Shown: positions 2,803-61,306 of the stretch, piece after piece
Layout of the letters: each line of letters opens with the position of its first letter
How positions within the stretch are numbered: position 1 is the first letter of the stretch
Assembly: GCA_965153355.1 (NCBI GenBank)
Contig: OZ231126.1
Coordinates: 40,052,001-40,116,000 of the forward strand
Length of the DNA stretch: 64,000 nt
Origin: Flaccisagitta enflata
Lineage: Eukaryota
Direction of reading: 5' to 3'
Made by a program: the position numbers and the translations under genes
The notes under the pieces: generated by a model
What the model saw: only the letters and a program-made list of their open reading frames with translations
The model's database searches: none
What the model was told of the DNA's origin: nothing

Positions 2803-3375
2803 CGGATAGATATGGCGTCTTAATTATTCATGAAATCATCATGAAGCGCAATAAAATGTCATGTATCTCATTTCTCATTTTCCATTACCACGCGAATCAC
2901 AATAAGAAAGAATGAGACGCACCTTTGTATTGCTTGATTTAACAGAGAATAAAATCATTCAAACTTGTTTTTGTTTTTACCATGTCCACTATCCGTATCG
3001 TTCCTCAGAGGAATGATTCTGTGACTTTGTCAGAGAAAACAAGCCCATGTTGTGGCCAATATGTACGCCTTCGCTGATTAAGAATTTGTGAATGGACGTT
3101 TTGAATGAATAAATGATTGGATAAATGGATGAATGGATGAATGGATGAATGGATGAATGGATGAATGGATGAATGGATGAATGAATAGATGATAGGAATG
3201 AAGAAAGACAACAGAATCGGCCGTATTGAGCATTTTAAACGTTTTCGTGACCGACTGACCAACGGACATGACCTTTTACGGATGTTCGAGGTCGCACATG
3301 AAAAACAGATAACAGAATAAAAGGTGAGACACAAACACACAAAACTCTTCAAAACAAACAATCAGTTGATAAAAA

Positions 3376-3578
3376 AACAAGGCCGGATACACAGCTACAG
3401 AAGTCGCGTGCGGGTGGGCAGGGGCCATATTTGAGGTCACCAGACCATTTGGGCAGGAGCAATGAGGTCAAAGAAATAAAACCATAAAAAAAAGTAAAGT
3501 GTGACCAACCGACAGACCGACCGACCGACCAACCGACGGGAAATGCGGGTTGTAGAGTCGCGTGCACGCGACTAAAAA
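3376..3578 (-). mobile_element. HINE/DINE-1-like non-autonomous Helentron-associated element (family A)
   Basis: Terminal palindrome AGTCGCGTGCACGCGACT next to an A/T run, internal (GACC)n microsatellite, other end AACAAGGCCGGATACAC. Related copies at ~3911-4078, 6791-6947, 7175-7318, 11919-12101, 33800-34005, 34435-34610, 39645-39838, 43511-43725, 47514-47721, 50947-51086 and 51156-51317. Superfamily assigned by structural analogy only. Confidence 0.65.
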
Positions 3579-5640: not shown

Positions 5641-5650
5641 NNNNNNNNNN
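5641..5650. other. Assembly gap (10 N)
   Basis: Run of n characters. Confidence 1.
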
Positions 5651-11730: not shown

Positions 11731-12904
11731 CAGGCCCGGCCAGGGGGGGGTCACCCCATCTGAAATAGGAGGCCCGGGCAACAGTGGGACCTGTGAGAGC
11801 CTCTGTGATACAAAAAAAAGAAAAAAAAAGAAAAAAAGAAAGAAAAAAGGAAAAAAAGAAAAAGAAAAAGAAAGAGAGAAATCAAGAATGAAAAAAAGAG
11901 GGAAATTAAAACAAAAGAAGGCAGGATACATGGCTACCCAAGTTGCATGCGGGTGGGTAAGGGCCATATTTAAGGTCACTAGACCATTTAGGCAGGAGCG
12001 GTGAGGTCCAAACATAAAAATCATGAAAAAAGTATAGTGTGACTGACAGACCGACCGACGGACCAACAAAATGGGGTGTAGAGTCGTGTAGCACGCGACT
12101 ACTATCTAGAGCAAAAGTATGGCAACACCATGCGATTTTATTTATCTATTCAATAAATAGAACATAATATGATTCCAAAATATGTTGACTACTTGGCGTT
12201 CCCTCCTTGGGCATCAATGACTGCCTTCATAGGTCTCAGCATGTATTTGTAAAGAAGTTTTAGGCAAGTTGGCAAGATCTACCTCCAGACTTTGAGAGAG
12301 ATTCTTTTAAGCCTTGCTATGCAACCTAAGTCGCATGTCCCTTGCTTAGTGGTGGCTTTGTTTGAGACCACAGCGGGGGTTGAGATTTGGGCTGTCCCCT
12401 AGCCAACCACCAGAAAGTTTAACAGTGTTTTTTGTGTGCCATTGCTTCTTTGTAACAGCGCAATGTATCAGAGTGCCACATCTCAATAATTAACTGCAAT
12501 TTTTTTGCCATTTTTTATTTGTTGTGGCAATCTTGTTTTGTCTGTCATTTCTAAATGCTTTGACTTAGATGAATGCGGTTGGCGCCATTAGCTCAGAAAT
12601 TTTATCTAATTTCAGAATCTCACTGATTTTTATATAGATTTTTTCTTTTAAACAAAGATATTGTTCTAAATATCTGTTGCCATACTTTTGCTCTAGATAG
12701 TAATAAGATAAGGGAGTGAAAAAAAAGGTTCTATCCAAATTACAAGTTCTGGAGGCTGAAGTTTCAGCACTGGAACAAACTTTAAGGCAGTAAAAAAATA
12801 TTGCAAAAGTCGAAATATTAAGAGTAAAGGAGGGGGCTGAAGGGGGAGGGGAGCCCAACCAAGGGAGCCAGCAGAGGGGCCCACCATTTTTCTGGCCGGG
12901 TCTG
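11731..12904. mobile_element. hAT-type MITE carrying nested insertions
   Basis: TIR CAGGCCCGGCCAG / CTGGCCGGGTCTG (12/13). The flanking 8-mers CATGGATG and CTTGGATA match 6/8, consistent with a decayed 8-bp TSD. Confidence 0.65.
12102..12700 (-). mobile_element. Internally deleted Tc1-family transposon
   Basis: Perfect 26-bp TIR CTATCTAGAGCAAAAGTATGGCAACA and TA TSD. The minus strand at ~12190-12260 encodes ...MLRPMKAVIDAQGGNAK*, matching the typical Tc1 transposase C-terminus (MPRRxxAVIxAxGGxTKY). Confidence 0.85.
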
Positions 12905-17520: not shown

Positions 17521-18094
17521 CACTAAGGGCGTTTTTTTAGTAATATGGCGAATAAACAATGAATTTTTTATTTCAATTTTTGATTGATAGATCTATAGAT
17601 AGGTCTTATGGAAAGTGATCCCACCAGTTTTGAACAATTCTTTATCTTGTATTGCCCAGAAAGTTACTTTAAGTAATGTTTTTCTTACATCATTACTGAG
17701 ACAGAAAAATCCATTGCCGCCTTTTGCCATGGAAAGACTAGGCTCTATCTGTAGCCATGGCTATAACGATTCTAGGTTCAAAATCTGAAGATACACTTTT
17801 ATCACTTTAGGAGTTATAGCACATGGAAAATAGTTGCAATATCTGCTCATTGCATTATGGAAATCCATCATCGCATCTTTCATCGATTTTTTCCCTTAAA
17901 ACGGGACCAAAATGCAGCTGAGGAACAGCAGAGACAGCTGAGAGGCAGGAGAAGCTGCAGGGGAGTGAGAGTTTTTTGTTTTCATTGCACTTTTTGGCAA
18001 TCAGAAGAGGCGGCCTCTTTGTGTGTAAACCATTGCTCTCACAGACTCCAGACAGATGGTACAGACGGGTAAGCATGCCCTATTTTCCAGTGTG
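17521..18094. mobile_element. Non-autonomous Transib-like DNA element (574 bp)
   Basis: Starts CACTAAGGGC and ends GCCCTATTTTCCAGTGTG. Exact 5-bp TSD CCATA at 17516-17520 and 18095-18099. Excision restores the host ORF. CAC termini with a 5-bp TSD are Transib hallmarks. Confidence 0.75.
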
Positions 18095-18099
18095 CCATA

Positions 18100-19352
18100 T
18101 ATTCTTCACCAGCAAAAGATTCATCAAATGATGCTCCTGTTAATAATGAGATCAAAGGCAAGGTCAAAATATCGTTGCCACCAACGGAGCATTTGATTGA
18201 AAAGGTTTCAAGTATGACAGGTGAAGGAGAATGTAACGATTTTGATAAAAATCGAAATTTGGGTGAGAAATTGAAGGATCAAGGACAATTTGGTGATAAA
18301 AACAACATGTCCAAGGACAACATTGATCCATCAACTCGAGGTGCTCACTACATATCCCCTGCTCAGTTGAGATCAAACGCGATTTTCGAGTTCAAGGATC
18401 TTGATAAAAACGCAAGTAAATTAAAAGGACAGGGGGCGCGTCAGAAAGATAAAAACAAGAGTCATAGCAAAACATGTCAAGGAGGCATACTTAGAAATAA
18501 GAAAGACATCCATCCAAATTACGACGATCTGAATGGGATAATTGATAGCAAGAACAAAATTAAAAATGATAAAGAGTTCTTGAATACTACTTTCACTAAG
18601 GGTGATGAACGGAGGACCAGATATAACAAGGCCATTGATGATAAAAAGTCAAAAATCACGATGGACCGTGAACTTAGGAACGCGATGCGTCCTAGTGACA
18701 ATCTCCCAATCTATGATAAAAGCAAAAAGTCAGAACTTTCAAAGATTGAAAAAAGTTTTAAAACGCATACAAATGATCTTTATTCCATCTGTAAAGAAAA
18801 CAAGCAAAGTACAAAAACGAATTTTGATCATTCCATAAATAAAGATATACGTGATAGAAACATGACTTATGCAAATCAGATCAATCATCGCCGCAGCTCT
18901 AGCCAGAACATGGTGTTTGGCAGTGGCCTTTGCCCTAATAACCATCAATTGAAACCTGATCATGGGCCATTTGACTGCAATCTTTGTCACAAGCATTTTG
19001 ATAATCACAAATGTTACATTTGTGAAAGTTGTGGCTATGAATTATGTTCATCTTGTTATGAGCCATTGAATTCTGGAAAAAAGTGGAAACCACGTGATAA
19101 TGGCTCGAAACGCGCTCAGAGACGCCGGAAAAGCTCAAGTGAAGAAGATTCTGAAGATGACAAACAAAAGGGGCACAAACGTCACCATGGTAACCGACGT
19201 CGAAAAAATCGTAAGAATGACGGTGATGATGGTGATAGCAGTGACAATGGTGACAGTGACAGTCATAATGGAGATGACAGAGGTCAAAACGGTGATAATA
19301 GAACCAGAAGAGCAGAGAGGAATGATGATGATGATGATGACGACCATCATGG

Positions 19353-19384
<32 letters not shown>

Positions 19385-20659
19385 GTGACGGTGATAGTAG
19401 TTATGATTATTACCGTGATAGTGACTCAGATAATGGGCAGAGAAAAAGAAGAAATCGTGGTTACAATGCTGCCTTTAGCCGTCGTGTGCGCAGAAAGCAA
19501 AACAAGTTGAAGCAGAGAAAAAATCTTCTTGAATATCGTCAGCGCCTGATGGGACCACTGAAAAAGTACAGTGTTACTGATGATTTTCAAATTTTCTATG
19601 ACGACTTTCTGTTAAGAGTCAAATTCTTTCAACTACAGCCGTATGAAGCACGCATCTATCTTATCACGCACATTCAAGACGAATTCATCAAGTCACAAAT
19701 TCAACACATATTAAAAAATCATCCCGGAGCGTCACTTGACACACTTGGCACCCACATTTGCATCGCACTAGGTGTGAAAAGTAAAGAATTGGTCTCAGCC
19801 GAGGGAGCTGGAATATCGCGCAAGACAAATGAAAACATATTCTCTTATGCCTTAAGAACTAAGGATTATAAGAATAAAGAAGTAATGGGTTATGATAACC
19901 CTGAGCAAATAATTAACACTGATTATTTTGCCATGGACATCTTACGCACATTCCAACGCGGTTTGCGTTCAAAATGGATGGTGTCTCAAATCGAAAAGAA
20001 GTCGTGCAAAAATCTGGATGAAGCACTTATTGTCCTCAATAGCAGTATGGCAAAACAATTGAGAATTGATCAGCTCACAGGAAAGGACGAAATTTCTCTA
20101 GAGACGGATAAAAATCTGTTTGTCAACCCAAAGTCGTCCCAATATTATGCAAATAACATCAATGAAGGCGACTTGGATTGGGATGGGAATCCTCTAAATG
20201 GAGAGGTCAATGCCATTAGTGGCATGTGTCCTAACTGTGGAAATTCCACAGATAGCCATATACAGGGGAAGTGCAAAGCATATGGAGTTAAGTGTCACAA
20301 ATGTGGACAATATAACCATTTCTCGAGATGCTGCCCAAAAAAGGTGAAAATGGTCACCCAAACTACACCTGCCCAAATGAGATATGCCAAAAAATCGGCA
20401 AGACGGCGTGAATTGGATAAAAAAATGGTCAATGCTGCCATAGAGGAATCTGACAATGAATCAAGTGCATCTGATGATGGAATTGAAGGAAGCGTGAAGA
20501 ATTGTGCGCCACTAAATGACACTGAAAGTGATTCCGATCCTGAAATTGTCAATGCCATCAGGAGACTGAGAAAAAAATTTGGTGCAAAGAAGTTTGAAAA
20601 GGAGCTCAGGAGAATAAATGTCATTGAAGAGTCAATTAACTCAATCGCGTCATTGCCTT
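18100..20659 (+). CDS. gag: Gag-containing polyprotein segment: Cys/His zinc finger, acidic/basic low-complexity tract, capsid-like region, two zinc knuckles
   Basis: CPNNH...CNLC...CESCGYELCSSCY at 18931-19059. CPNCGNSTDSHIQGKC and CKAYGVKCHKCGQYNHFSRC at 20227-20331 resemble the double knuckle of Mag-group gypsy elements. The last 20 aa of the ORF-track call come from the inserted LTR. Confidence 0.85.
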
Positions 20660-21178
20660 TGTGCCCGCTCGCTCCCTTTCTCCTAACCGGAGTTACAGTG
20701 ACGACGCAATTAACGGTCTGAAATAATTTATTAGCAATCATTAGTAATCAGTGGTAACTTAGGCAATGAGCAGTAATAATTAGTGGCAATCATAAGTACA
20801 CCAATTTACATCTTTACAAGGCTTAGTACCTGAAACTTCAACTCATTTCGGCATTCAGGGAACCAGAGGGTAAGTAATGCTAATCAATTCATCATTAATC
20901 TGCAAAAGATGGAAAAAAAGTAACATTAGTAGGCTTATTTACTCCTAATCGCGAATAAACAATGAGAGCGAAGGAATAAAGACGAGCGAATGGACTAAAC
21001 AGCAGGTAAACGCTCTTATAAGGAAATTCTCATGGCATGTATCATGAATCCCAGCTCAGCTTCCGTTCAATTCGAAGCGGTGAACTACTAATAGAGGGCG
21101 TTGCTAAAAGGGTAAGTTTTAAGGGCAAAGTAAGGTCTTAAAACAAATGAACAGTGCTTGCTCACGCGAGCCCGCACA
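20660..21178 (-). repeat. 3' LTR of nested element
   Basis: TGTGCCCGCTCGC...GCGAGCCCGCACA (11/13 terminal inverted repeat). Identical by eye to 25575-26093. Confidence 0.95.
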
Positions 21179-21191
21179 CCCCCCACCTGGA
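21179..21191 (-). promoter_or_regulatory. Polypurine tract of nested element
   Basis: Minus strand TCCAGGTGGGGGG directly abuts the LTR. Confidence 0.7.
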
Positions 21192-21258
21192 CTGTAAAAC
21201 ATGTCCAGCACAAGCATGAGAAATCGTAAGCGCAAGCTTGAAAAATTGTAAGCGTAAG

Positions 21259-21921
21259 CTTGAAAGCGTGAAAGCCAAAGGCCAACCTTGAAAGCGTGAA
21301 AGCCAAAGGCCAAACTTGAAAGCTGAGTTGCCACAAACTTAAAGCATGAGCTACAGGTCAAACTTAAAGCGTGAAAGCAAAAGGCCAAACTTGAAAGCGT
21401 GAAAGCAAAGGCCAAACTTGAAAGCGTGAAAGCAAAAGGCCAAACTTGAAAGGAAAGCAAAAAGGCCAAACTTGAAAGCATGAAAGCAAAGGCCAAACTT
21501 GAAAGCATGAAAGCAAAAGGCCAAACTTGAAAGCATGAAAGCAAAAGGCCAAACTTGAAAACATGAAAGCAGGCCAAACTTGAAAGCGTGAAAGCAAAAG
21601 GCCAAACTTGAAAGCGTGAAAGCAAAAGGCCAAACTTGAAAACATGAAAGCAAAAGGCCAAACTTGAAAGCATGAAAGCAAAAGGCCAAACTTGAAAGCG
21701 TGAAAGCAAAAGGCCAAACTTAAAGCGTGGAAGCAAAAGGCCAAACTTGAAAGCATGAAAACAAAAGGCCAAACTTGAAAGCATGAAAGCAAAAGGCCAA
21801 ACTTGAAAGCATGAAAGCAAAAGGCCAAACTTGAAAGCATGAATGCAAAAGGCCAAACTTGAAGCCATGAATGCAAAAGGCTAAACTTGAAAGCATGAAT
21901 GCAAAAGGCCAAACTTGAAAG
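21259..21921. repeat. 28-bp tandem array (~23 copies) in the 3' UTR of the nested element
   Basis: Unit GCCAAACTTGAAAGCRTGAAAGCAAAAG (e.g. 21601 and 21629). No unique spacers. Confidence 0.95.
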
Positions 21922-22917
21922 CTAGAGCATCGCAATGCCTGAAATAACTCTCTTTATCTTATCAAATGTTTTGGGGAATTAATTACCCATCCTACTTAAA
22001 AATGAAAAGATCGCGAGGAAAAGATTGGGGCAGTCACGATATTAAAGAGGGGAAAATTCCGTTCAAACAAAAGAGAATTAACCAAATCAAAATCTTATAC
22101 TTTAAAGTAGTTGACTCAAACTATGTCAACAAGGAAAAGATGAATGTAAGCATCGTAAACTTGAGGGTAGTTGCTGACGCAAACTCTTTGTCAACAAGAG
22201 AGAATGTACATGAAATCTTAACTTGCTTATTTTCATGAACGTAAGAAAAGCTTACAAGCATCATTAACTTCAAGGTGGTTGTTGATGCGCAAATCAACAA
22301 TGGAAAAAAGCAATCGCAAATTAAATGTAGAAAATTTAAGCACCTCTAACTTCATTGTGTAGTAGATGCAAAGAAAATGCTTGAAACTTAAAAATGGAAA
22401 AAGTAAGCGTCATTAATCGCAATATAATTGTTAACGCAAACAAAAACTTTTTCCCCTCCCACCCCCCACGTCCTTCATTCCATGTAAATCTAACCCAAAG
22501 AACCAATGCCCGACGGCGAGTTGCAGTTGGAGAGAGTAGGAAAAGGTCGTAGGAGCGGAGGTGTAGCAGAATCGTTGACGTGTAAACTCGTTCAAGAGCA
22601 GCGTGCAGGAGCGTCGAATTGTATCTTATCACAGGGGCTTATCACTGAAGCCATATTTCTTATCATAGAGGGCGGGCTCTTCCATCACTAGAGCAACTTT
22701 CATTGAGACTTGACGCACTTTTACCGTCGGCAAATTGAAAGAAGGAAAAATGCAAAATCAATGAGAGCATAAACTAACTGACGAGAAAGAGCTAAAAAGA
22801 GTGAGAGTATAAAGAGCAACAATGAAAATGTTATCACTAAAATGCCGTCTTCTCTTCGTCGAATTGAGCGAAGCTGCCTAAGATAAGCATTGAACTCATT
22901 CTCACTTTTTCTTCCCT

Positions 22918-25506
22918 TCATGATGACGTAGCGTTGGTAACGTAATCGGAAGGCCCGTGACATCGTTGCGCGGGAAAAGGCTTGGGGTGGCGGCCGGGAA
23001 TCTTAGGGTGGCGGCCGGCCGGGAATCTGTGGTGGGCCGAATCTCTGGGTGGGCGGAATCCCAGGTGGCGGCCGGGAATCGGTAGCGGCCGAGAATAGAA
23101 GCGTAGCGGCCGAGAATATCGTAGCGTGGCGGCCGAGAATCGTGTGCGTAGCGGCCGAGAATATCGTAGCGTAGCGGCCGAGAATATCGTAGCGTAGCGG
23201 CCGAGAATATCGTAGCGTAGCGGCCGAGAATATCGTAGCGTAGCGGCCGAGAATATCGTAGCGTAGCGGCCGGGAATCTCGTGATTGTGGCCCGTAGAAG
23301 CATGGTTGTGGCCCGTAGAAGCGTGGTTGTGGCCCGTAGAAGCGTGGTTGATTTTCGAGTGGAGACGGAGAATTCTTTTCTTTCTTCTTTTCCTCCTTCT
23401 GGACTCGAACTCGTAGCGTCGAAGACGTGGCTTTATTCTTCGTCCTCTTACGAAGAAAAGTTGAGGGGGAAAAAATCTTTTCTTTTTCCGCTTTTTTGCC
23501 CTCGCGTAAATCTTCTCGTCGCAAAGTTCCCGACGAGTGGTCCCTCGGAAAAAAGGGAGAAAAGGAGAGGCTTTGTAGTTTCCAGATGACGACGGACTGC
23601 CGTCAGATGGATCCTTGCCGTCTGCAGATGAATCTTGGTAGTCTGCAGATGAATCTTGATAGACTGCAGATGAATCTTGGTGGTCTGCAGATGTTCGACG
23701 ATCGATAGAGGAAGCTTGGCAGTCTGTAGATGATGTCAACAGATGACTGACGGAGGCTTGGCAGTCTACAGATAACGACCGAAGATCGAAGGTGAAGGCC
23801 CGTTCATTCACAGATGATACTTGGTGGTCTTCAGATGATGACTGAAGATGAAAAGAAGAGACATGGATGTCTTCAGATGACGACGGGCAATCGTCAGATG
23901 ATTCTTGAGGGTCTGCAGACGATGACTGACGGTCGACAGAATAAGCTTGGCGGTCTGTAGATGTGGTCAACGGATGATTGACTGAAGAAGCTTGGTAGTC
24001 TACAGATGATGACCGACGATCGAAAGTTAAGGCTTGTTTGTCCACAGATGATACTTGGTGGTCTTCAGATGATGACTGAAGATGGAAAAAAGATATGTGG
24101 ATGTCTCCAGATGACGACGGGCGGCCGTCAGATGATTCTTGGTGGTCTGCAGATGATGACCGACGGTCGACAGAATAAACTTGGCGGTCTGTAGATAATG
24201 CCAATGGACGATTGACTGAAGAAGCTTGGTGGTCTACAGATGATGTCGACGGACGTAGACGGTCGATCAAAGAGGCTTGATACTCTGCAGATGTATCCGT
24301 AACAGATGTTGGCGGAATCGTAGCAGGTGCCGGTTGAATCTTGGCAGGTGCCGGCGTAATCTTGGCAGGTGCCGGCTGGATCTTGGCAGTTGCCGGCAAA
24401 TTTGTGAGAGATGCCGACAAATTCAAAAACGTAGATGAAGAAGATGAATCGTAAAGAGGAGGCTCGTCAGAATGATGAACAGGACGTGAAGGAAGAGAAA
24501 AGTTAGTGGCAGTGAGAGGATGATTTTCTTCGTTGATCGATGGACATGGGACTGGAGGCACTTCCGGTTGTGAGGCGGTTGTACTCTCTTTTACTCCAGA
24601 TCTTTCTTTTCCCTCTCTTTCCATCGCCAACATGAATTCGTTCATCTCCTCCTTTATCTTGATTATAATGTTGCCAATTTTCTCACTATCTCCGTCCATC
24701 ATGGCTTCGTAGATAGCGTCCAGTTCATTTTCTGTTGCCTCTTCCAATTCCACTTTTTTCATCGTAAAACGGAATTTCATTTCTTCATCCAATTTCATAA
24801 TTTCTTTTATTTTTCTTTCAAGTTTTTGCAACAACGACTCTTTTCTTTCTTGATCGTCGTCGTTGAGATTGGATTCCAAGTGAGTAGCAAGGAGATCCAA
24901 ATGAGGAGGAAGATGATGATTCTCCGTCGATGCCTTGTGCGCGACTCGGCAATCGACATCATCACCGCCTCCAACGCCGCCACCAAACTTGCCGCCTCCA
25001 CCATTGAGAACGCCGTCGCCGCCACTTTCTCTTGAATTGATGTCAACACCGCCTCCACTTTCATCCCCTTCTTGTCTGCTAATCTTCGTTGTGGCGTCAG
25101 ACTCTTGCTGGGCGCCGGAAGCAGGATTGAGGAAAAGCGTTGGCAAATACATCAAAAATGGCGACTGTCCATATATGAATAGGCGTGTCTCTTCCAGTAG
25201 GAGACGATAAGGCTCGATGATGACGTAGAAATATTCCCACAATTGGTAGGAAATGTCTTGTAATTTCAGCGTTACAACGGCATAGCTGACGGCGTTGTTA
25301 GCAGCACAGAATAGATCATAAATTTGTTGGGTAGTCTCCGCGGAACGCGTCGTAACGGAGATGAGAGAATCGTAGAGGTTTTGATAGATGACTGGAAGCT
25401 GGAGTCGATCCATCACTTGGAAGACGTAACTCTTGACGTCCATTATTGCGTCGGCGGGAATCGGTTCCGACGTTGAAATTCCGAGGACGTGTCTCTTGAC
25501 GTCCAT
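22918..25506 (-). CDS. Orphan ~862-aa protein of the nested LTR element
   Basis: Open frame; the first ATG outside the LTR is at 25506 (MDVKRHVLG; the track start 25656 lies within the LTR). Hydrophobic N-terminal region, Gly-rich linker, E/K/M-rich predicted coiled coil, Ser-rich repeats, Arg/Lys-rich segment, repeat-derived tail. No CCHC, DSG/DTG, YxDD or DDE motif seen. Confidence 0.75.
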   Translation of the reverse strand: MDVKRHVLGISTSEPIPADAIMDVKSYVFQVMDRLQLPVIYQNLYDSLISVTTRSAETTQQIYDLFCAANNAVSYAVVTLKLQDISYQLWEYFYVIIEPYRLLLEETRLFIYGQSPFLMYLPTLFLNPASGAQQESDATTKISRQEGDESGGGVDINSRESGGDGVLNGGGGKFGGGVGGGDDVDCRVAHKASTENHHLPPHLDLLATHLESNLNDDDQERKESLLQKLERKIKEIMKLDEEMKFRFTMKKVELEEATENELDAIYEAMMDGDSEKIGNIIIKIKEEMNEFMLAMEREGKERSGVKESTTASQPEVPPVPCPSINEENHPLTATNFSLPSRPVHHSDEPPLYDSSSSSTFLNLSASLTNLPATAKIQPAPAKITPAPAKIQPAPATIPPTSVTDTSAEYQASLIDRLRPSTSSVDHQASSVNRPLALSTDRQVYSVDRRSSSADHQESSDGRPSSSGDIHISFFHLQSSSEDHQVSSVDKQALTFDRRSSSVDYQASSVNHPLTTSTDRQAYSVDRQSSSADPQESSDDCPSSSEDIHVSSFHLQSSSEDHQVSSVNERAFTFDLRSLSVDCQASVSHLLTSSTDCQASSIDRRTSADHQDSSAVYQDSSADYQDSSADGKDPSDGSPSSSGNYKASPFLPFFRGTTRRELCDEKIYARAKKRKKKRFFPPQLFFVRGRRIKPRLRRYEFESRRRKRRKKRILRLHSKINHASTGHNHASTGHNHASTGHNHEIPGRYATIFSAATLRYSRPLRYDILGRYATIFSAATLRYSRPLRTRFSAATLRYSRPLRFYSRPLPIPGRHLGFRPPRDSAHHRFPAGRHPKIPGRHPKPFPAQRCHGPSDYVTNATSS

Positions 25507-25561
25507 CGTAACATCGCCACCAATGACGTCAGCGGGGCGCGGCGCCGACGAGGATGACGTT

Positions 25562-25574
25562 ATGAGTTGAAGCT
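25562..25574 (-). promoter_or_regulatory. Putative non-tRNA primer-binding site
   Basis: The minus strand after the 5' LTR reads AGCTTCAACTCAT (no TGG). It is complementary to ATGAGTTGAAGTT within the LTR (plus 25749-25761). Confidence 0.55.
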
Positions 25575-26093
25575 TGTGCCCGCTCGCTCCCTTTCTCCTA
25601 ACCGGAGTTACAGTGACGACGCAATTAACGGTCTGAAATAATTTATTAGCAATCATTAGTAATCAGTGGTAACTTAGGCAATGAGCAGTAATAATTAGTG
25701 GCAATCATAAGTACACCAATTTACATCTTTACAAGGCTTAGTACCTGAAACTTCAACTCATTTCGGCATTCAGGGAACCAGAGGGTAAGTAATGCTAATC
25801 AATTCATCATTAATCTGCAAAAGATGGAAAAAAAGTAACATTAGTAGGCTTATTTACTCCTAATCGCGAATAAACAATGAGAGCGAAGGAATAAAGACGA
25901 GCGAATGGACTAAACAGCAGGTAAACGCTCTTATAAGGAAATTCTCATGGCATGTATCATGAATCCCAGCTCAGCTTCCGTTCAATTCGAAGCGGTGAAC
26001 TACTAATAGAGGGCGTTGCTAAAAGGGTAAGTTTTAAGGGCAAAGTAAGGTCTTAAAACAAATGAACAGTGCTTGCTCACGCGAGCCCGCACA
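25575..26093 (-). repeat. 5' LTR of nested element
   Basis: 519 bp, TG...CA. On the minus strand TTATAA (25931-25936) precedes AATAAA (25642-25647), the expected U3-R-U5 order. Confidence 0.95.
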
Positions 26094-26098
26094 GCCTT

Positions 26099-29000
26099 TC
26101 CTTCATGCGAAATTAATCGACAAGTCAGGAAATATGGCTAATTGTAAGGTCCTCTATGACTCCGGTAGCTCCTGTAGCATTGTGAGCAAAAACTATTTGG
26201 AGAAAAATAGCCTTATTTTTGATCCTATTGAATACAGTTCAACGCTTCAGGGCTTTCAAGGCTCAAAGATTCAGGCTCATGTAAAGGGAAAATTTTTGAT
26301 GGATGTAAAATCAGGATTGAACATTGAACTTGAGTTAATTGTTATTCATGAGAAAGCCCTGGCCTACGATGTTATTTTTGGTTTTAATGAAATATTGCAA
26401 AACAAGTTCTCATTGAATCATGAAAAAGATCCACCTTGTTTTCATCACAACGGAAAAGACATACCAATCTATCAAATGAAGGACAAATTTGATGAGGAAT
26501 ATGAGAATGAAGATGGCGTTCTAACAGTAGAACAGACAAAAGAGCAACAAACCATCTACTGCACCACGGGTATAACATTGATGGGAAGTGACGTTTATTT
26601 TCTGCCAGTTCAAATTACGTCCGATGCTGCTGGCTTGTATGAGGTCAGTTTGGATGAAGAATTAAGCTCTAAAGGACTCAAGCTTGAAGGGCCATCTAAG
26701 GTGGCATTCATCAAATCAGGTCGAAATAAAAACCTGATTTCTGGCGTTTTACATGTCAGGTTTGATCGGAAAAAGAATGTGATGCTCAGCTTACCTGTTT
26801 TAAGTTGCGTGGGGGTGTGCCAATGGGCTGAAGACAACAACTTAAAAATTCAGGTGGAAAGTGCCAACTTTGCTGAAGTAAAAGTAAAGGAAGAAAAAAA
26901 TCGAATCTACATTCACCCTGTCAAGATCATTCCAACAAAAAAGCAATTAAAAGCAGTGAAATTAGCCCAAGAAAAGAGAAAATCTAAGTGGACTGTTGAA
27001 CTTTTAAAACATGAGTCTCAAGAATGGCTTTCCAACGTGCCTGAGAGATATAAAGGTGATGTTCTAAGTTTGTTACAAGAATATGCTACGGTTCTCTTAC
27101 ATGATTTTTCTGATCTAGAACACGGTGTGATTGACTTTGAACTAAGAGGCACAATTCCAAAAGATCTATTTATAGCCTGTCACTACAGATCACCTCCACT
27201 TATAATGAAAAATCTATATGCACGAATGCAAACATACATGATGGAGATTGGACTAGCAGAACCATGTTTAAGACCAGCTGTAGTTAATCCGTATCAATTA
27301 GTGGTTAAGAAAAACTGCAAATTACCGACTGATCAAGAAAGTCTTAACAAGCTATCAAATCAAGACCTGGTTTCCCAATTTAGAATTGTTCAAGACTGCT
27401 CTGCAGTAAACACATTCTGTGTTGGAGGATCTGCTGGATATGTAGTTGGGATCTCCGAGCTTATAAATGAAGTAAGAGAAAATTCTCTTGTGTCCTTGTG
27501 GGACTTGTCAAATTCATTCCACCAAATAAATCTTTCGAGTCAATTGGATGAAAATGGAAGATGTCTAAAAGACTTATTTGCATGTTATTGTTATGCACAA
27601 GGTCAATACATGAGAGCCAATAAAATGGTTCAAGGCTTTACGGCAGCCTCAGATTTGGCATCTTTAATTTTCAAGGACATTGAAGAACCCATAAGCTCAG
27701 TGCCACTAAATTGCAGTGTGGAGGAATACAAGAAACATGTTGAAAGCTACGACAATGGAGATTTAATCACCTGCACAGACCCATTGTACTCAGGTCAGAT
27801 CCATTCATATATAGATGATGCCATTTCTCAGACACCGGGAATCTATGGTGAATTGAGTACTTACAATCTAAAAAAGTCTTCTTTCTACAAAGTCCCAAAA
27901 ACACAGATGGATCACTTGGTCTATCTCCATCTCAATGTGCTTGCCAAGATTTTTACAAATCTAGAAAAACACAATCTTTTGATTCAACCATCAAAAATGG
28001 CTTTGCTGACGCAAAATTCATTCACTTTTTTAGGACTAAAGTTTCTGAGAGTAAACGGAATGCTTCAAGTTACTATGCCTGACAAAAAAATCAAGGCCTT
28101 GCTCGACTTTGAACCCCCAAAGTCAATTTTGGAAGCTCATAAGCTAATTGGCTTTATATCATTCTTTGCCATACTATTGGAAAATAGCAAAGTGCTACTT
28201 GAGCCAATTCTACGCCTAATTAGAAAAGGGACCAAGTTTCAATGGGGAGAATATGAACAAAAGTGCCTAGATCTGATTAAAGAAAAGTTGACAGCAAGTG
28301 TGTTAGAAGGATATTGTCGTTTGACTGATTCTAATACCTTCTATGAGTGTCACATATATGTGGACTGGTCTAAATTAGCGTCCTGTGCTAGTGCCATAGT
28401 TTATATCAAAAGCTACAAGGACCAAACTCTGAAACTCGCTATGTTTTGGTCACGCCTACTTAGTGCTACCTTTTCCAAGCGTGCGCCATACATTTGTGAG
28501 GCTGCGGCTATTGCACTTTTCCTCGTTTCAAACAAGGCATTGCTTGGAGGAAGATGTTTAAATACATATTGTGATAATCTAGTAGCTTGCTACCTGCTCA
28601 GAAAAGGAGTGGGAAATGTCGACTCCTTCTCTGATGGAGTAACTCATCGCTTGTTGCTCTCAATCGCGAATATACCCGCAAAATTTGTCTATACACCAAC
28701 GTCAAATAATCCTAGTGATTATTTGTCAAGATACAGTGGTGATAGAGCTGATGAAGCAGATGAATTGTGTCTTGAAAGCACAAGTGTTTCTGATCTGACG
28801 CTTATGGATTCGAAAACTTTCAAGCCTCAAGAAACACTAGATTCATATCTTGAGAATAGCAAGAAAAATGTGGAAAAAATGAGGCAGCTTGCTTCCACAC
28901 ATTGGGACATTAATCTAGTCAAAAAGAGATTCAAGAATACACACATATTCAGTGATAATGTTCATCACAATGATGATGTGATCGCCATCTGTCAAAATAA

Positions 29001-29808
29001 GGAAGTTCCTGACGTCCTCAATGTAGAGAGCCCCTCTGATGTCATGGCAACAGACATCAAAACTTGGATTCAACCAGACACGTCAGATCATACATTTACA
29101 TTAATTGAGAAGCCCTACGTGAATGTATGTGCAGACTTATTTCAAAAAGAACACACAGATACTCAATATGAGAATTTCTTTAAATCATCTAATGGAGGAG
29201 ATCTCATTGATTTGTTGGTGAGAGAATCAAAGTTGAACCCATATACAGAAAAGTTCATGAAAGAACTAAGAGACGACAGTCATTTCATTGCATCCAACAG
29301 AATGCTATCAGCCCATACTTTCAACTCACAAGAAGGTATTATTGATAATGAACTATATAGCGATCGTGTTCATTTGTCTTTGACTCTTCAAGAAATGTTT
29401 GTCATCAGCGACACTAATAAACAAAAGGGGATCGACCTGGATGCGGCGCCGATCTTCTCATCCATAAAAGAGATCAAACACAGTGTTGCCAAGTACGAGT
29501 TGAGTGCACAAGCTAAGTCACGATTCAGCTACTTTTCTGAAATCCAAAACAGATCTTTGGATATATCCTTAATGAAGGATTATTTGCAAGGCATGGCTAA
29601 TGAAGAAAGAATGGAGCTAAGAAAGAAAGGATCTGCCTTGTTCCGTTTCATGTTCAACAACAAAGATGCAATTTTTGAGGAAAATGGCTTATTGTTTCTG
29701 ATAAAAATACCCAAGTCAGGAGAACATCACTCATTTGCATTACTGATGGAAAAAGTTGACGGAGAGCGCCAGATGATTAAAATCCATGCAAAATCCCACA
29801 GAAAATAA
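26099..29808 (+). CDS. pol: Pol: aspartic protease, reverse transcriptase, RNase H, start of integrase
   Basis: PR: LYDSGSS (26158). RT: FRIVQD, WDLSNSFHQI, MVQGF, YIDD (27808-27819), FLG. RNase H: YVDWS, CEAAA, YCDN, NPSDYLSR. In frame with gag once the nested element is removed (SIASLP|FLHAKL). Confidence 0.95.
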
Positions 29809-31362
29809 ATGTATGTTTATGCAGTTTTCAGCAAAAGATTCTTTTGCATAAATGCTCTTAGCTTGGCCATATCAGTATGCAACAAATGCACTCAGTGCGC
29901 ACAGATGGAATATCGAAAAAAATTAAAATGTGAGAGAATTAACTACACTGGCCGTGATTCAGTAATTTGCTGCGATCATAAAGGACCATGTTATGACAAA
30001 GGTGGAAAGCCTGGATACATTTTAGCTATAACTGAGCTAAAATTCAAGCTCTGCAATTTCACATTTGTGAAGACTACATCAGCTACTGAGACAGCAGAGG
30101 CTATCTTCAGCAACTACTTTGTGAATTACGGTGCAAACTGCACCATAGTTACAGACCGCTCAACTGCATTTGTCAATGAGCTAAGCAAATGTTTATACAA
30201 ATTGGGTTCAATTTCCCATAGAGTGGTATCTGCTTACCATCCTCAAGCAAGCTTGGCTGAATCAATCAGTGTCAGACCATTCAGCAAAAGTCTAAGAAGT
30301 GTCATGTTTGGAAGAGATGCTTCAGAAATAAAAAGAAATGTAAAATATTGCCAGTTCATTGTAAACAATCTAACCATACATGAACTAGGTAAAACTCCTT
30401 TTGAACTACTTACTGGATCCACAAACAGCTTTTATCACCCCATTTTGGAATTGAAGGATCAAACACTGGATTATCCATCCTTTTTGAAGAAAAAGATTGA
30501 GTTTCTTCAACAAATAACTGACTTCTATTTGAATAAGTACGATTTGTATCTTTCACAAAAACGTCCATGCAATCATACTGTGTCCTCACTAGGACTGGAA
30601 GTTGGCCAGAAAGTGTGGGTGAGAATTTTCAAATATGGAAAAAATCTCAAATATCTGAAAAGTATTCTGCCTAAAGCAAAACTAGCTGAAATTACACATA
30701 TCAATGGAGCTACATCTCTCATCCTCAGAGATGAAGAAACTGGAAGGGTAATTTCAAGACATCTTAGTGATGTATTCTTGGTGGAATTTACTGGCAATTT
30801 CTCTTACTTATATAAAGATTCTTTAACTAGTCAAAAGGAAGAATATCTAGAGATTGAAGAGAGCCCAATAATTGACTCCAGAGGTGCTGACTTGATACTA
30901 CTGGAAAATCAGAAAAGACTAAACAGGTCATCGCCAAGTCAAATTCAAGCAGAAGCTATTTCGCCAGATGGCGCAAAAACGATCTCGCCAGATGGCGCCA
31001 AAACGATTTCGCCAGATGGCGTTACGAAAAAAAGAGCATCGGCGATAGGTGGCGCTGTGAGCAATGGCGCTGGTTCTATGATACCAATAATTGGTGAGAC
31101 TGAACAAAATTCGCCCCTGGCTGATAACGCAGCTGAGAACACGCGGCTAGGTGGCAAAAACAAAAGTAAAACGCCCTCAGATGGCGCTAAACACGAAATC
31201 GATTTGCCTAACTCGAAATTACGGTCTAGAAAGGACTCTCAACGCAAATCAAGAATTGTGACGTCATCCTCCAGTGACAAGGAAAGTTCAGATGAGGAAA
31301 TACGCGATCACGGAAGCAGAATGAAACTGAGGCCCAGGAGGCATATTAATTATAAAGTGTAA
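29809..31362 (+). CDS. Integrase (same frame as pol, separated by one TAA)
   Basis: H-X3-H-X29-C-X2-C spans the stop. Core CCDHKGP / VTDRSTAF / YHPQASLAE (D-X34-E). C-terminal LEVGQKVWVR SH3-like region and three ISPDG repeats. Confidence 0.93.
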   Translation: MYVYAVFSKRFFCINALSLAISVCNKCTQCAQMEYRKKLKCERINYTGRDSVICCDHKGPCYDKGGKPGYILAITELKFKLCNFTFVKTTSATETAEAIFSNYFVNYGANCTIVTDRSTAFVNELSKCLYKLGSISHRVVSAYHPQASLAESISVRPFSKSLRSVMFGRDASEIKRNVKYCQFIVNNLTIHELGKTPFELLTGSTNSFYHPILELKDQTLDYPSFLKKKIEFLQQITDFYLNKYDLYLSQKRPCNHTVSSLGLEVGQKVWVRIFKYGKNLKYLKSILPKAKLAEITHINGATSLILRDEETGRVISRHLSDVFLVEFTGNFSYLYKDSLTSQKEEYLEIEESPIIDSRGADLILLENQKRLNRSSPSQIQAEAISPDGAKTISPDGAKTISPDGVTKKRASAIGGAVSNGAGSMIPIIGETEQNSPLADNAAENTRLGGKNKSKTPSDGAKHEIDLPNSKLRSRKDSQRKSRIVTSSSSDKESSDEEIRDHGSRMKLRPRRHINYKV

Positions 31363-33016: not shown

Positions 33017-36000
33017 CAGTGCGGCTCAAAAAAAAGTTTTAGGCAGTTTTTAATTCTATCTTATAGCAATAGACATAACTTTTTAACGATTTTTTCTTTA
33101 TCATCTATAATTTAGACTACAATAACAATGGCCAAAAAAAAACCGGACGCTGTTTTTTCATCAAGGATTGCTCAGAAACTAAGAAAGATAAACCCTTAAA
33201 ATCCATAATGGTTTCAAATAGCTTCAAAATATCTTTTATTTGAGCTCTCAAAGAACATTGTAGCTTCAGAACTTTAGAAGTTATGATGCTTTAAAGATCA
33301 CCACTCAGAAATCTCGAATCTGGAATCAATCTTTTTAGGGTAACCAACTTTGAATTAATATAGCTTGTAAACGAAGAAGAATCATGATTTCTGCTTGATT
33401 CCATCTTGTAGAGAATTAAAGTAGCGGGGGGACCGTGGAGCCCCAAAGGGGTAAATAAGAGAGATACACCACTCAGTAGGCGACCAATGTCTGGTGGAAC
33501 ATCCCTCTTAACAATCTGAAACATCAGATGGACTCAAAAATGTTGAAAAAATCGCCCTCATCTAGCATCTTTTTCATCTATGTAAATTATCAAAATTCCC
33601 ATTAAAGTTGCTGCATTTTTAGGGCTTTTGGCCACAAAAAATTTCAATTCCTGATCACTTTCAACAATGACAAGCGTTTTTTATGTGATTGCTGATATTG
33701 TATGTAACAGGTGATTGATTAATAAAACAAAACTCATAATTGCTGCAAGTTGCTGCAAGTTGCAGCATGTTGCTGCAGGCATCGTAGTAATTTAAGCCAA
33801 ACAAGGGTGGATACATGGATACCCAAGCCACGTGCGGGAGGGCAGGGGCCCTAATTGAAGTCACTTGATCATTTGGGCAGGAGCAGTGAGGCCAAAGACC
33901 GCAAAAAGCAAAACAAGTAAAAGATGACAGACCAACGGATGGACCAACAGACAGACCTACGGACCAACAAAGCGGGGTGTAGAGTCGCACAGCACGAGAC
34001 TAAAAGTGTTGCAAATCTGAGAACACAATGATAGGCAATCGAGTCCTATAGTTTTAAACTAGCAACTCTATCAGGAGCTTTATCCATCTGTCAGTCTATC
34101 TTTTGGACACTTTGACTGTCCATCCATTCATCCATCAGCATATCTGTCCATCTGTCCCTCCATCCCTTCATTTACAATACACTCAATCATCGGTAAGTAA
34201 TTATCTACTTCTAGTTCAAAAGTTTTAAATTGGTCATTTCTGCCCCTGCCAGTGTTCTTGTAACACGTTGAAATGGCCAATGTAGGTCCTTCAAGTGTAA
34301 ACTTGCGACTGGCCCTTGCATCTGTCTGTCTGTCTGTCTGCCTGTCTGTTAATCCAACTGTCCATCCAACCCTTTGTCCATTCAACCATTCACCTATTAC
34401 ATCCAGATCCGTAAGCATCGTTTAAAAACAATCATGACCGGTTACACGGCTACCCTAGTCGCGCGTGGGTAGGCAGGGTCAGTGATTTAAAAGGGTCACT
34501 TGAGCAAAAGATGCCCAAAAACGCTGAAAAAGCTAATGGTATCAGACCAACCAACAGACCGATCAACCGACATAGCGGGTTATTGAGTTGTGGTGTAGCA
34601 TGCGACTACAAATTGCAGTTTGTTTGTCCATTTCCAGGCAAAATACTGCTGCTTGTGCATTAACCCAGCCCAGTTGTATGAGTCAGTTGCATTTTGAAGG
34701 GTTCCCCTCCCAACAGACAGCACGACTAAGTGGCATATAGAATTGCGTGGATGCAACTGATAATAGCATTCTAAGCTCATTAATCTGCTCCTTACCTTAG
34801 GTCTTTTTAAGCAAGACTCTTGGTCGAAAACTTATTTTTGCTGCATATCGATTTCAAGATTATTTCAACTGTCACGATTGATCATCTGGTGGAGAGCAAG
34901 CCCAGCAGTATCAGTCTTACAAGGCCCTAAACATGCAACCTTGGTTGTGGACAGGTGCGGGATTGGAAAACCCTGAAAAGCAACTTTGTGACAGATTGAA
35001 GGACCAATGGACCAATGAACATAAAAGTGACTTATAGAGTTGCATGTCCGCGACAAAAAAATTAGAATAGCCCTATGATTGACTATGTATCAGACTCTCT
35101 ATCACCACTGATAATTCAAATCAGTACAGTCAAATACCACAATGACGGATGCCAAGGGACTAAAAAGTTTTATCCATAATAGACAAATTTCTGTCATTAC
35201 AAAGGGGAATATGTGGTCAGCGGTTTCCAATGACTAACCACGCACAATTGTGATAGCGAGTGTGATAAGGCGATGCAACCACCCTGAGGGGGATGAAGTC
35301 CTGTACAACACGGAGGACCTTTGTTCATACTGCCATATTTGCGGTCACTAGAGCATTAGAGCAGGAGCAGTGAGGCCGATGTACACAGAAACATGGAAGA
35401 AAGAAAAAAAAGTGACAGACCGACCAATGAATGGACAGACAGTGGTGTATACCATTGCGTAGCACATGACTAAGACCCATCTTACTGAGAACAAGCCTCT
35501 AATTGTATTGTATCATATTTTTTGTCAAATCCCCTGGTATTAATCCCTCTGCACCTTTTTATCTACAGATGGAACCAATGACAGACTCACTTAGCTAATA
35601 AAAGAGTTGCATAGCACGCATCTGAAAATTGCAATGATTAAAATTTTTTGCTTGAGTGTTCCTTTTCAAGAACAGGCCCAATACACTAATGACTAATGGC
35701 AATACACTAATGACTTATATGGAGAGACATATAGACAAACAGACATATCAAATGACAGAGTAGAAAAGAGACTCTCAAACCATGTTTGTTGATTTTTTTT
35801 TCTAGTGAATGATCTCACTGTGGCTAAAGAAAGCCAAGAAGTAGTTTTTACACAGGTGAAACGAACAGACGGAAGGAACTGACGAACGGATATCCTGTTG
35901 AGATGCATTCCTGAAGGACGCACCTAAAAAGATATAATCCTGATTGCAGCAACTTTTTAAGTTTTTCAAATCCATTTTCAGTCACATGCTACGCGACTCT

Positions 36001-43786: not shown

Positions 43787-44370
43787 AGCGTCCTCTCAAT
43801 GTCAGCCAGGAAAACATGTTTCTAAGCAACGAACATAAAAGGGAACAAAAGAGTCACATGATTCCACCCTTACTACAACTTAACTTTCTAGCTGTCTTTC
43901 TTTCGGTCTTTTTATTTGGCTGTCTTTCCACATGTATGTCTGTCTATCTGTCTGTCTGTCTGTCTGTCGATCTGTCTGTCTTTCTGCGTGCATGTCTCTC
44001 TATCTGTCCACATTTCTGTCTATCTGTCTGTCTGACTGTGTCTGTCCCTCTGTCTGACATTATGTCCTCCTTACAACCACAAAAGCAATATTCTCAGAGT
44101 TTTTCCATTTATCCTTTTTTTTCTTGCTTCACTTTTTTTTTCAATTCAATTCTGTATTATTCTCTCTTTTAACCTGTGTTTACATTCCTTCCATCTTTTT
44201 TCCCTTTCCATTTTTACATCTCTTCATTTGTACAAGAAACAAGACCGGCTAAATGGCTACTCCAGTTGCGTGCGGGTGTGCAGGGGCAGTATTTGAGTCA
44301 CTAGTGGAGATTGAGTCTACCCTCTTCAGTATATCAACCTAAGAGTGAAACTTTAGTGAATATCAATTGT

Positions 44371-47310: not shown

Positions 47311-48715
47311 GAGCAAATAGAAACAAGAAAGATATCCATCAACGCAGGCGATGATGTTATTCACAGCCGTTCTATGATTAAAGCAGGTTAGGGAGAAGAG
47401 ATGAAAAATGATCAAGTCGATTCTAAAAGCCGAGCCGTTTGGTCGTCGGTTGTTCCATGGGTTGGTCACTGTCAGCTTTTTCGGGATTCGCAGTTCTTTA
47501 AATGCGCGTATATTTTTAGTCGCGTGCTACGCGACTCTACATCCCGCTTTGTCGATCCATTGGTCCGTTGGTCCGTTGGTCCGTCGGTCCGTCCGTCACA
47601 CTTTACTTTTTTGGGGTTTTTGCAGTCTTTGGCCTCACTGCTCCTGCCCAAATGATGAAGTGACCTCAAATATAGCCCCTGCCCACCCGCACGCGACTGG
47701 GGTAGCCGTGTATCCGGCCTTTTCTTCCTTTTGGCATCAAAATAGCCTCCGTCTCGTTACCCCTGCGGCAGGGGCCCTCCCCAACCACAGCGGCACAGCC
47801 TATCATGGTCTTTGACTTGTTCCTGGTTAACCTGCCGAGCCTCCATGAGGACTCTATCCCCAAAACAGAAGCCACAGAAATTCTGAGTTTGGCGGAAGAT
47901 AACCCACATGTTTTCCCCAGTTGCCTGCATTATCTATTTTTAGCAGCATCGCATGAAAGAATCAATGGAAAAAAAGGAATTTCGATGGAAAAACGGTTTG
48001 ACATAGTGACATACAGACGGTATAAAACTACTTTTACTCTCAGTCGCCAGGATTCGATTCGTCTAAACGAGAAGAGAGTGCTGGAGAAAACTGAGACAAA
48101 GAAGATCTCTCCATTAATCAAGATGCATTTTTATCTTTTCATCTTTTAAGAGCTAATGCAACTCAACAATCATTTTTCTCATTTCTAGAGTCTCTCTTAC
48201 TCTCTCTCATCATTTTTTTTTCGTTTGTATCTTTTTCTTTTTTTCTTTTTTCCTTTGTATGTGTTACTCTTTTTTCTTTGTTTCTTTGTTTCTTTGGTTC
48301 ATAACCGCGGAAAGCTAAACTTTGCTACTTTGTTTCTTTGTTTCTTTGTTTCTTTGTTTCTTTGTTTCTTTGTTTCTTTGTTTCTTTGTTTCTTTATTTC
48401 TTTGTTCTTTTGTTTTTTTTTTCTTCTTCTTCTTCTTCATCTTCTTCTTCTTCTTCTTCTTCTTCTTCTTCTTCTTCTTCTTCTTCTTCTTCTTCTCCCT
48501 CTCTCTACGTAGCAGGTAAATAAAGATGATGACTTAATAATAAAAAAAATTAAAAAAAGATAGTAACATAAAATCCTCGAATGAATAAGGTCAGATGGTG
48601 GTTCTGGATGAATGAAATAAAGAGGTGCATGAAATGAAAAATGAGTAATGATGTTTCTTTTTTATTGATAGCAGCATCTCACATTACATTTACGATGAGG
48701 TCAAATTGAACTCAC

Positions 48716-57125: not shown

Positions 57126-57398
57126 TTTGCATATTATCGATATCACCGGCAACACCGTTTTTAGGGTTACAAACTGATCTTTTACCATTCTCCAAATATC
57201 TATTCCATCTAAATTCTACCTTGCTATGTAACCTATTAAAAAAAGAAGAAGTTTGAGGAAGGGCTGATGTATAAACAGAGCGTCAGAATTAAAGCACACG
57301 TGACATCAGTTCAATTGCAAATAATCTATGATAAAGAAAACAAAATTTGGTGGAGGGTGGGATGGCGGCAAAGGGCAGGAAGACTGCAACTTGGTGGT

Positions 57399-59838: not shown

Positions 59839-60489
59839 CGTCGGTCGGTCTGTCCGTCGGTCCGTCGGTCGGTAACACTTAGCTTTTTTGTGTCATTTAT
59901 GGTCATTTTGGGTTGTCTGGAGTCATTTTGAGTCATTTTTTGTTGCTTTAGGTCATTTTTGATTGTTTTAAATAATTTTAGGTCATTTTTGATCATTTTT
60001 GATCATTTTTGATCACATCTCGCTTTTTCAGTCGTACGTTTTTAGCTGAATTTAGCTTCATTTCTGAGGTCAGATCCTTTTCTCTTCTAGCTTGTATTTT
60101 GGAACAGGAATGTGGAAAATATCTTGGCATTAATTTGCGCAAATATTTTAGTTACCAAAAATAGGCAACATTTAGGAAGTTTTGAGTTTCATTTCACCAT
60201 GCAAATGTTTGAAAAAAAAACGTCAAATGGAGAAGTATGGCAATTCTCAAGTGGTTCGGAGTAAGCTTTTACAAGCTCATCAATAAGAAGGTTTTTTTCT
60301 TTCATCATCTGACTGACTGAAAGAGGTTCAAAAAGCAAATACAGAGAAAAAAGGATCGTAATATCTGACCAAAAGACGAATTACAGAATTACAAATGACT
60401 ACTACTGCTTCATGAGTCATGACCGATTACGATTTTAAATTTGTTTTAATCCTCCACGTCTCATCCCATTTATATCTTCCGCTCAGCAG

Positions 60490-61304: not shown

Positions 61305-61306
<2 letters not shown>

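Follow-up and report, generated by a model that had tools for sequence, protein, structure and literature searches.

A candidate self-primer in the long terminal repeat of a nested, non-autonomous retrotransposon from a marine eukaryote

Self-priming of reverse transcription has been shown experimentally for Tf1 and Tf2 of S. pombe and has been proposed for Tj1 of S. japonicus (PMC7175516, PMC5341516, PMC4600332). The Tf1 primer consists of 11 bases and is released by a cut between bases 11 and 12 (PMC7175516). By sequence alone, self-priming has further been predicted for the Tf1/sushi group 'from fungi to vertebrates', for the plant Tcn1 chromoviruses and for the TAR lineage of Ty1/copia (Houba, Osr-1). 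The published criterion asks for a stretch that begins 0-5 bp after the 5' LTR and is complementary to it over at least 10 bp (PMC6317226). Self-priming frees an LTR element from host tRNAs and, presumably, also from defences in which 3' tRNA fragments target tRNA-type primer-binding sites (PMC7472051). Our literature searches found no report of self-priming in an invertebrate LTR element, which is not proof of absence.

Here we describe an LTR retrotransposon, nested within a gag-pol element in a 64-kb stretch of DNA (hereafter, the window), whose LTR contains an exact complement of the sequence at its own priming position. We cautiously favor a reading in which part of the element's own RNA, and not a tRNA, would prime minus-strand DNA synthesis.

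The nested element and its surroundings

As delimited by strand reading and by alignment of its two repeats, the nested LTR retrotransposon occupies 5,434 bp of the minus strand, from 26093 to 20660. Its 5' LTR (25575..26093, minus strand) is 519 bp long, has TG...CA ends and an imperfect terminal inverted repeat that agrees at 11/15 positions, and is 100% identical to the 3' LTR (20660..21178, minus strand) by blastn and repeat search. The blastn match between the LTRs, at 100% identity, is 520 nt long: A25574 happens to be the same as the first base of the target-site duplication and adds one chance base to the 519 nt of the LTR. This duplication reads AAGGC on the element strand, with the upstream copy at 26094..26098 and the downstream copy directly after the 3' LTR at 20655..20659. 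A polypurine tract, AGGTGGGGGG (21179..21188, minus strand), adjoins the 3' LTR, and their junction is also present in one RNA contig and in DNA contigs. The locus has the complete anatomy of a functional, recent insertion; we found no further copies within the window. A tandem array with a period of about 28 nt (window 21223-21975) lies directly upstream of the polypurine tract.

The frame list, Pfam and protein searches point to a single long ORF in the nested element, which runs from its first ATG across 22918..25506 on the minus strand. Pfam assigned the 914-aa frame to no family at E up to 0.01, and we therefore call the element non-autonomous: the LTRs, target duplication and polypurine tract are all present, and protease, reverse transcriptase, RNase H and integrase are absent. 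An earlier, sequence-only reading of this DNA had described a nested, non-autonomous element with an LTR, and we agree, finding it inside a gag-pol element and without pol domains of its own. Nor did we see a zinc knuckle or other Gag mark in the ORF. An N-terminal domain of about 110 aa is kept in relatives down to 36% identity, and the sequence beyond it is low-complexity and repetitive. Exhaustive search of 1.84 billion representatives recovered 7 proteins related to this domain. Their identities span 87% to 36%, which argues that the ORF is a real conserved gene and that diverged sister families exist. All seven are short fragments or consist of the ORF only, and none carries pol. Among proteins of similar or greater length the ORF had no relatives, and it had no Atlas neighbours. 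Neither the protein relatives nor the window yielded an autonomous partner with the same LTR or primer-binding site.

Two internal repeats were seen within the ORF. Its start (window 25029-25506, minus strand) contains a short repeated unit, MDVK.HVLG..SEPI.AD.., in 2 copies here and 3 in a related copy, and the domain of about 110 aa follows (P0004, P0005, P0010). In the serine-rich part, a 234-bp unit is repeated twice, with the two units 86% alike (window 23667-24251).

The nested element sits inside a gag-pol element on the plus strand. By frame reading, the outer element comprises a gag-like frame (18073-20659), a frame for protease and reverse transcriptase (26094 to 29808) and an integrase-like frame (29809-31362), with a single in-frame stop (29806-29808) between the RT/RH part and the integrase part. 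Its best solved relatives are the Ty3 reverse transcriptase (E = 2e-6) and the Ty3 Gag-Pol polyprotein (E = 6.5e-4). Pfam gave weak RVP_2 and RVT_1 matches only, the integrase is recognisable only against Ty3 (E = 6.5e-4), and the outer element had no match to a chromodomain. Relatives were scarce, numbering 2 among 8,000 scored candidates. Overall, the outer gag-pol is Ty3-like and very divergent. Counted along the coordinates, the insertion together with one copy of the duplication amounts to 5,439 nt, or 3 x 1,813; the outer gag and pol halves stand in the same phase across the insertion, which was therefore precise. We found no LTRs of the outer element anywhere in the window, and no link between it and the LTRs of the nested element. 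A repeat pair at 44370/56349 was considered as an LTR pair and rejected, as it lacks TG..CA ends.

Several other repeats mark the window. Four copies of a dispersed repeat of about 200 bp, one of them inverted, lie at 3375-3578, 11904-12101, 33789-34005 and 47513-47721 and are 72-82% alike; this family may be SINE- or MITE-like. Satellite DNA with a unit of about 80 bp forms two long arrays, at 57310-59934 and 61305-63880, many shorter arrays with periods of 8-15 nt are scattered throughout, and a run of 10 N lies at 5641-5650.

Matches to the nested element came from contigs of marine metagenome runs and of runs coded 'organism A'. Two DNA and two RNA runs were aligned at a likeness of at least 85%; these are assembled contigs, which cannot show where transcripts start or end. 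In the DNA runs, 515 and 289 contigs aligned, and the copies are 85-100% alike, ranging from below 90% to above 99%. Summed contig depth in the organism-A run reached thousands for the nested family, versus 234 for the flanking gag-pol element. The nested family is very abundant, and apparently active. The nested element is a young, high-copy, non-autonomous LTR retrotransposon. The contigs also show at least two versions of the sequence just upstream of the family's 3' LTRs, one with the G-run polypurine tract of the present copy and one different, so subfamilies differ in the region of the plus-strand primer.

Short-motif searches elsewhere were unproductive. A 17-mer from the LTR end matched two identical, unrelated viral contigs and no relatives; a 20-mer matched one GC-rich bacterial contig among metagenome contigs, a chance match; and a 21-mer had no matches among genome contigs and viral contigs. 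Protein-profile searches of the genome and viral contig collections returned 89 and 141 pattern matches, none of which was confirmed.

A primer-binding site without TGG and its complement in the LTR

The 5' LTR ends in ...GGGCACA at 25575, and the sequence after the CA reads AGCTTCAACTCAT. The usual mark of a tRNA-type primer-binding site, TGG adjoining the LTR, is missing: none occurs within 5 nt after the 5' LTR, as self-priming would require of positions 0-5, and the nearest downstream TGG, at a distance of about 50 nt, is too remote to account for the observed LTR end. The terminal CA (25576-25575) is followed by a 2-nt spacer, AG (25573..25574), and then by the 11-nt primer-binding site CTTCAACTCAT (25562..25572, minus strand). 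Inside the LTR, ATGAGTTGAAG at 25761-25751 is the exact reverse complement of these 11 nt. The helix extends past 11 bp through U25750-G25573, U25749-A25574 and U25748-A25575, giving 14 bp with one G-U pair and reaching the last base of the LTR (A25575). We refer to the 14-nt LTR segment (25748..25761, minus strand), which was evaluated by motif count, shuffles and pair probabilities, as the candidate self-primer. Direct reading of the strand thus confirmed two observations of the sequence-only reading, namely that the priming position lacks TGG and consists of AG and then the 11-mer, and that an exact 11-nt complement at 25751-25761 extends to 14 bp, with one G-U, up to the LTR edge.

In the retroviral model, CA is followed by two bases that integrase later trims, and then by the primer-binding site. 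The exact complement here begins 2 nt after the CA and matches this usual arrangement of CA, 2 nt and primer-binding site. The geometry of the 2-nt spacer is also consistent with RNase H cleavage after base 11 and extension from there. Set against the published criterion for self-priming, the element has 11 nt of exact complement at offset 2, or 14 bp with one G-U (PMC6317226).

Identity between the LTRs ends at the CA at 25575, and minus-strand synthesis in the parent element must therefore have begun within a few nucleotides of 25574. A start near 25574 means that the 3' end of the primer was ...GAAG, ...GAAGC or ...GAAGCU. As this end is not CCA, the 3' end of a mature tRNA is excluded by the sequence itself. 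We identified no candidate host RNA. The 64-kb window has no tRNA genes, an Rfam search of the nested element matched no family, and the motif is absent from the supplementary files of PMC13524379, including the primer-binding-site tables of a metazoan Ty3/gypsy survey. In a literature search, the motif occurred only as unrelated PCR primers.

Could the complementarity be fortuitous? At up to one mismatch, the window contains only three sites for the 11-mer: the primer-binding site, 25761-25751 and a second LTR copy at 20846-20836 in the 3' LTR. This number is not unusual, being 3 versus 2.38 expected, with 43/100 shuffles reaching 3. We then considered position. In dinucleotide shuffles of the LTR, a complement of at least 11 nt to a k-mer starting 0-5 nt after the LTR arose in only 32/20,000. 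Across all start positions in the 4,396-nt internal region, the primer-binding site alone has an LTR complement of at least 10 nt, and the runners-up, in four places, reach 9 nt. What is unusual is the position of the 11-mer, not its number in the window, and the complementarity between LTR and primer-binding site is real and unlikely to be due to chance.

Transcript start, RNA folding and the origin of the primer

The LTR has one TATAA (25931..25935, minus strand; motif scan). An initiator-like CCATTC lies at 25903..25908, minus strand, and places A25906 29 nt after the first T of the TATAA. These canonical signals predict a transcript start near 25906, about 145 nt upstream of the candidate primer segment. 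The caveat of the sequence-only reading, that the TATA box at 25931-25936 predicts a start about 140 nt upstream, is therefore well founded on both sequence and motif scan. With a start near 25906, the segment would lie about 145 nt inside R and not at its 5' end. At 25761 itself such signals are missing: no TATA-like box lies some 30 nt before it, and 25762/25761 is not a pyrimidine-purine step. Under the standard model, a primer with a 145-nt 5' extension would leave plus-strand strong-stop synthesis without a natural stop. For Tf1-type self-priming, one would therefore expect transcription to start at 25761 or close by. Whether a Tf2 RNA includes the self-primer depends on which start site is used (PMC5341516), so where the RNA of the nested element starts is biologically meaningful.

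In two RNA libraries of one study, contigs extend over most of the LTR and over the primer-binding site and the junction of polypurine tract and LTR. One of them spans 26046 through the primer-binding site to 25485; as it could reflect assembly through R, read-through or DNA, it does not place the start. At the other end of the transcript, the only AATAAA in the LTR (25642..25647, minus strand; motif scan) is downstream of the candidate primer. Self-priming needs the primer to lie in the transcribed repeat, and 25761-25748 is indeed upstream of 25647-25642. Transcription would therefore include the 3' LTR copy, which could restore the segment after the first jump.

Self-priming also needs an RNA structure that brings primer and primer-binding site together, and such a structure is predicted. 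The 14-bp helix is present in the minimum-free-energy and centroid folds of RNAs that start at 25761 or 25906, and its pairs have probabilities of 0.70-1.00 when the 5' end is set at 25761, 25764 or 25906, whichever of the two 3' ends is used. In a read-through RNA from 26093, the probabilities drop to 0.16-0.22 if the 3' end is short and come to 0.68-0.98 if it is longer. The 11-bp duplex has a predicted energy of -13.7 kcal/mol and the 14-bp duplex one of -17.2 kcal/mol. The total folding energy is unremarkable, with z = -1.15 (28/200 shuffles fold as well) and z = -1.23 (11/100). A second predicted stem beside the helix pairs approximately 25688-25677 with 25592-25581, a place where other copies carry deletions.

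We propose the following sequence of events. In the genomic RNA, the LTR segment 25761-25751 would fold back onto 25572-25562, which begin 2 nt beyond the LTR. A partner element would supply the reverse transcriptase, and the RNase H of this enzyme would make its cut behind the 11th base (G25751). Synthesis would proceed from the 3' OH so exposed, first across AG and then across U5. The primer segment is upstream of the only AATAAA, and the 3' LTR copy would therefore restore it once the first strand transfer has taken place. The plus strand would then copy the RNA primer, re-making the primer-binding site in each cycle, such that the two 11-mers would be kept identical. Of this, the analysis establishes the anatomy of the element, the complementarity, its improbability by chance and its predicted stability. 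We infer that cleavage and priming take place, where the transcript starts and that there is a partner element. The sequence-only reading had likewise arrived at self-priming, and it is supported in part: there is no tRNA-type primer-binding site, and an improbable complement occupies the priming position and agrees with the published criterion.

Self-priming could take two forms here, which carry similar weight and are about equally open: a strict Tf1 form, in which the segment is the 5' end of the RNA, and one that relies on internal cleavage. In the latter, transcription would start near 25906 and the partner's RNase H would cut an RNA-RNA duplex about 155 nt from the cap, so that the primer would be a capped RNA of about 155 nt and not the first 11 bases. 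Taken as a specific proposal, internal cleavage is unlikely. If true, it would be a variant of self-priming not described for Tf1, in a high-copy non-autonomous family that is marine and probably animal, and it would imply an unseen autonomous self-priming lineage outside fungi, vertebrates and plants.

Of 219 substitution sites among the copies, the 40 best supported include none within the two 11-mers, where about half a site is expected, which makes this uninformative. The 12 of 31 indels that were listed include three directly 3' of the primer-binding 11-mer, at 25550, 25554 and 25560-61, and none inside 25562-25575, which is weak evidence for self-priming. In one organism-A DNA contig, of depth 86 and with a shorter side of 30 nt, 25633 is joined to 25786. 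Here 19 other letters stand in place of 152 nt, and both the candidate primer and the only AATAAA are lost, while the deletion stops short of the primer-binding region. This variant counts against self-priming, but it is probably a defective deletion derivative.

Among the alternatives, the one that survives best is that the primer is a fragment of a host RNA ending in ...UUGAAG(CU), such as a tRNA half, an internal tRNA fragment or another small RNA, and that the LTR complement merely occludes or regulates the primer-binding site. Primer-binding sites of the half-tRNA or internal-tRNA type, which lack TGG, do occur in Ty1/copia lineages (PMC6317226, PMC5445492), and the promoter signals at this locus do not place the segment at the 5' end of the RNA. 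However, this explanation comes without a candidate RNA, as Rfam, the supplementary files of PMC13524379 and the literature gave no match. A 14-bp helix covering the whole primer-binding site would compete with an external primer, and a coincidence seen in 32/20,000 shuffles would then have to serve a second function. On balance, we consider a host fragment possible but doubtful.

Alternatively, the helix may be a purely structural, long-range stem of the 5' UTR, serving packaging, dimerisation, translation control or strand transfer, with priming achieved otherwise. Long-range 5' UTR pairings around the primer-binding site exist in retroviruses and Ty1, and the helix at this locus is predicted whatever the 5' end, including the TATA-predicted 25906. 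In the fungal GalEa elements, moreover, a conserved hairpin replaces the primer-binding site and no primer is known (PMC5445492). Yet a purely structural role would leave the element without a primer, although its identical LTRs show that reverse transcription began exactly here. The exact pairing also begins 2 nt after the CA, which is the geometry of priming and is needless for a stem. We regard this explanation as quite improbable.

Finally, chance complementarity, or the relic of an inverted-repeat (MITE-like) insertion at 25761-25562 with 14-bp inverted ends, is very improbable: AA flanks the 14-bp arms on both sides and the count of the 11-mer in the window is not above expectation, but only 32/20,000 shuffles do as well, the positional control agrees, and the LTR boundary at 25575 falls inside the putative unit, of which the 3' LTR has only the left part, identical in sequence, so the unit was not inserted after the element formed and the MITE relic is rejected.

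Collectively, we continue to favor self-priming, with the caution stated at the outset. If true, it would extend the range of self-priming to an abundant, apparently active family of a marine organism, and there would have to be a partner reverse transcriptase with an RNase H able to cleave double-stranded RNA. The known picture of LTR-element replication is unchanged by the nested element.

Comparison with known systems

The nested element resembles the self-primed Ty3/gypsy elements Tf1, Tf2 and Tj1 in having no tRNA primer-binding site (PMC7175516, PMC5341516, PMC4600332). As in Tf1, the complement comprises 11 bases (PMC7175516), and, in common with these elements, the segment belongs to the transcribed portion of the LTR and precedes the poly(A) signal. 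The mRNA of Tf1 begins with its 11 bases, and cleavage by RNase H has been shown experimentally, whereas in the nested element canonical signals predict a start about 145 nt upstream of the segment. Unlike Tf1, the nested element has no pol with which to place it in a tree or to check for a chromodomain, and its host is a marine eukaryote, while Tf1, Tf2 and Tj1 are fungal.

With the lineages in which self-priming was predicted by sequence, the nested element shares the mode of inference, having been judged by the same criterion of at least 10 bp starting 0-5 bp after the LTR. Those lineages are autonomous and were placed by RT/RH/INT trees, whereas the nested element is non-autonomous and belongs to another host group.

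The Conserved Hairpin Site of the GalEa copia elements offers another parallel, as pairing is likewise found at the position of the primer-binding site with no match to a tRNA (PMC5445492). The GalEa hairpin, however, is local and palindromic, with two arms of 9 nt that are separated by 12-41 nt and both lie beyond the LTR (PMC5445492). In the nested element, by contrast, one arm is 189 nt upstream, inside the LTR.

In its overall build, the nested element is like LARD-like elements and TRIMs, with LTRs, a target duplication, a primer-binding position and a polypurine tract, and without protease, reverse transcriptase or integrase. The TRIMs that have been described have primer-binding sites complementary to tRNA (PMC6934838), which the nested element does not. 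It further differs from both TRIMs and LARD-like elements in carrying a conserved ORF of its own.
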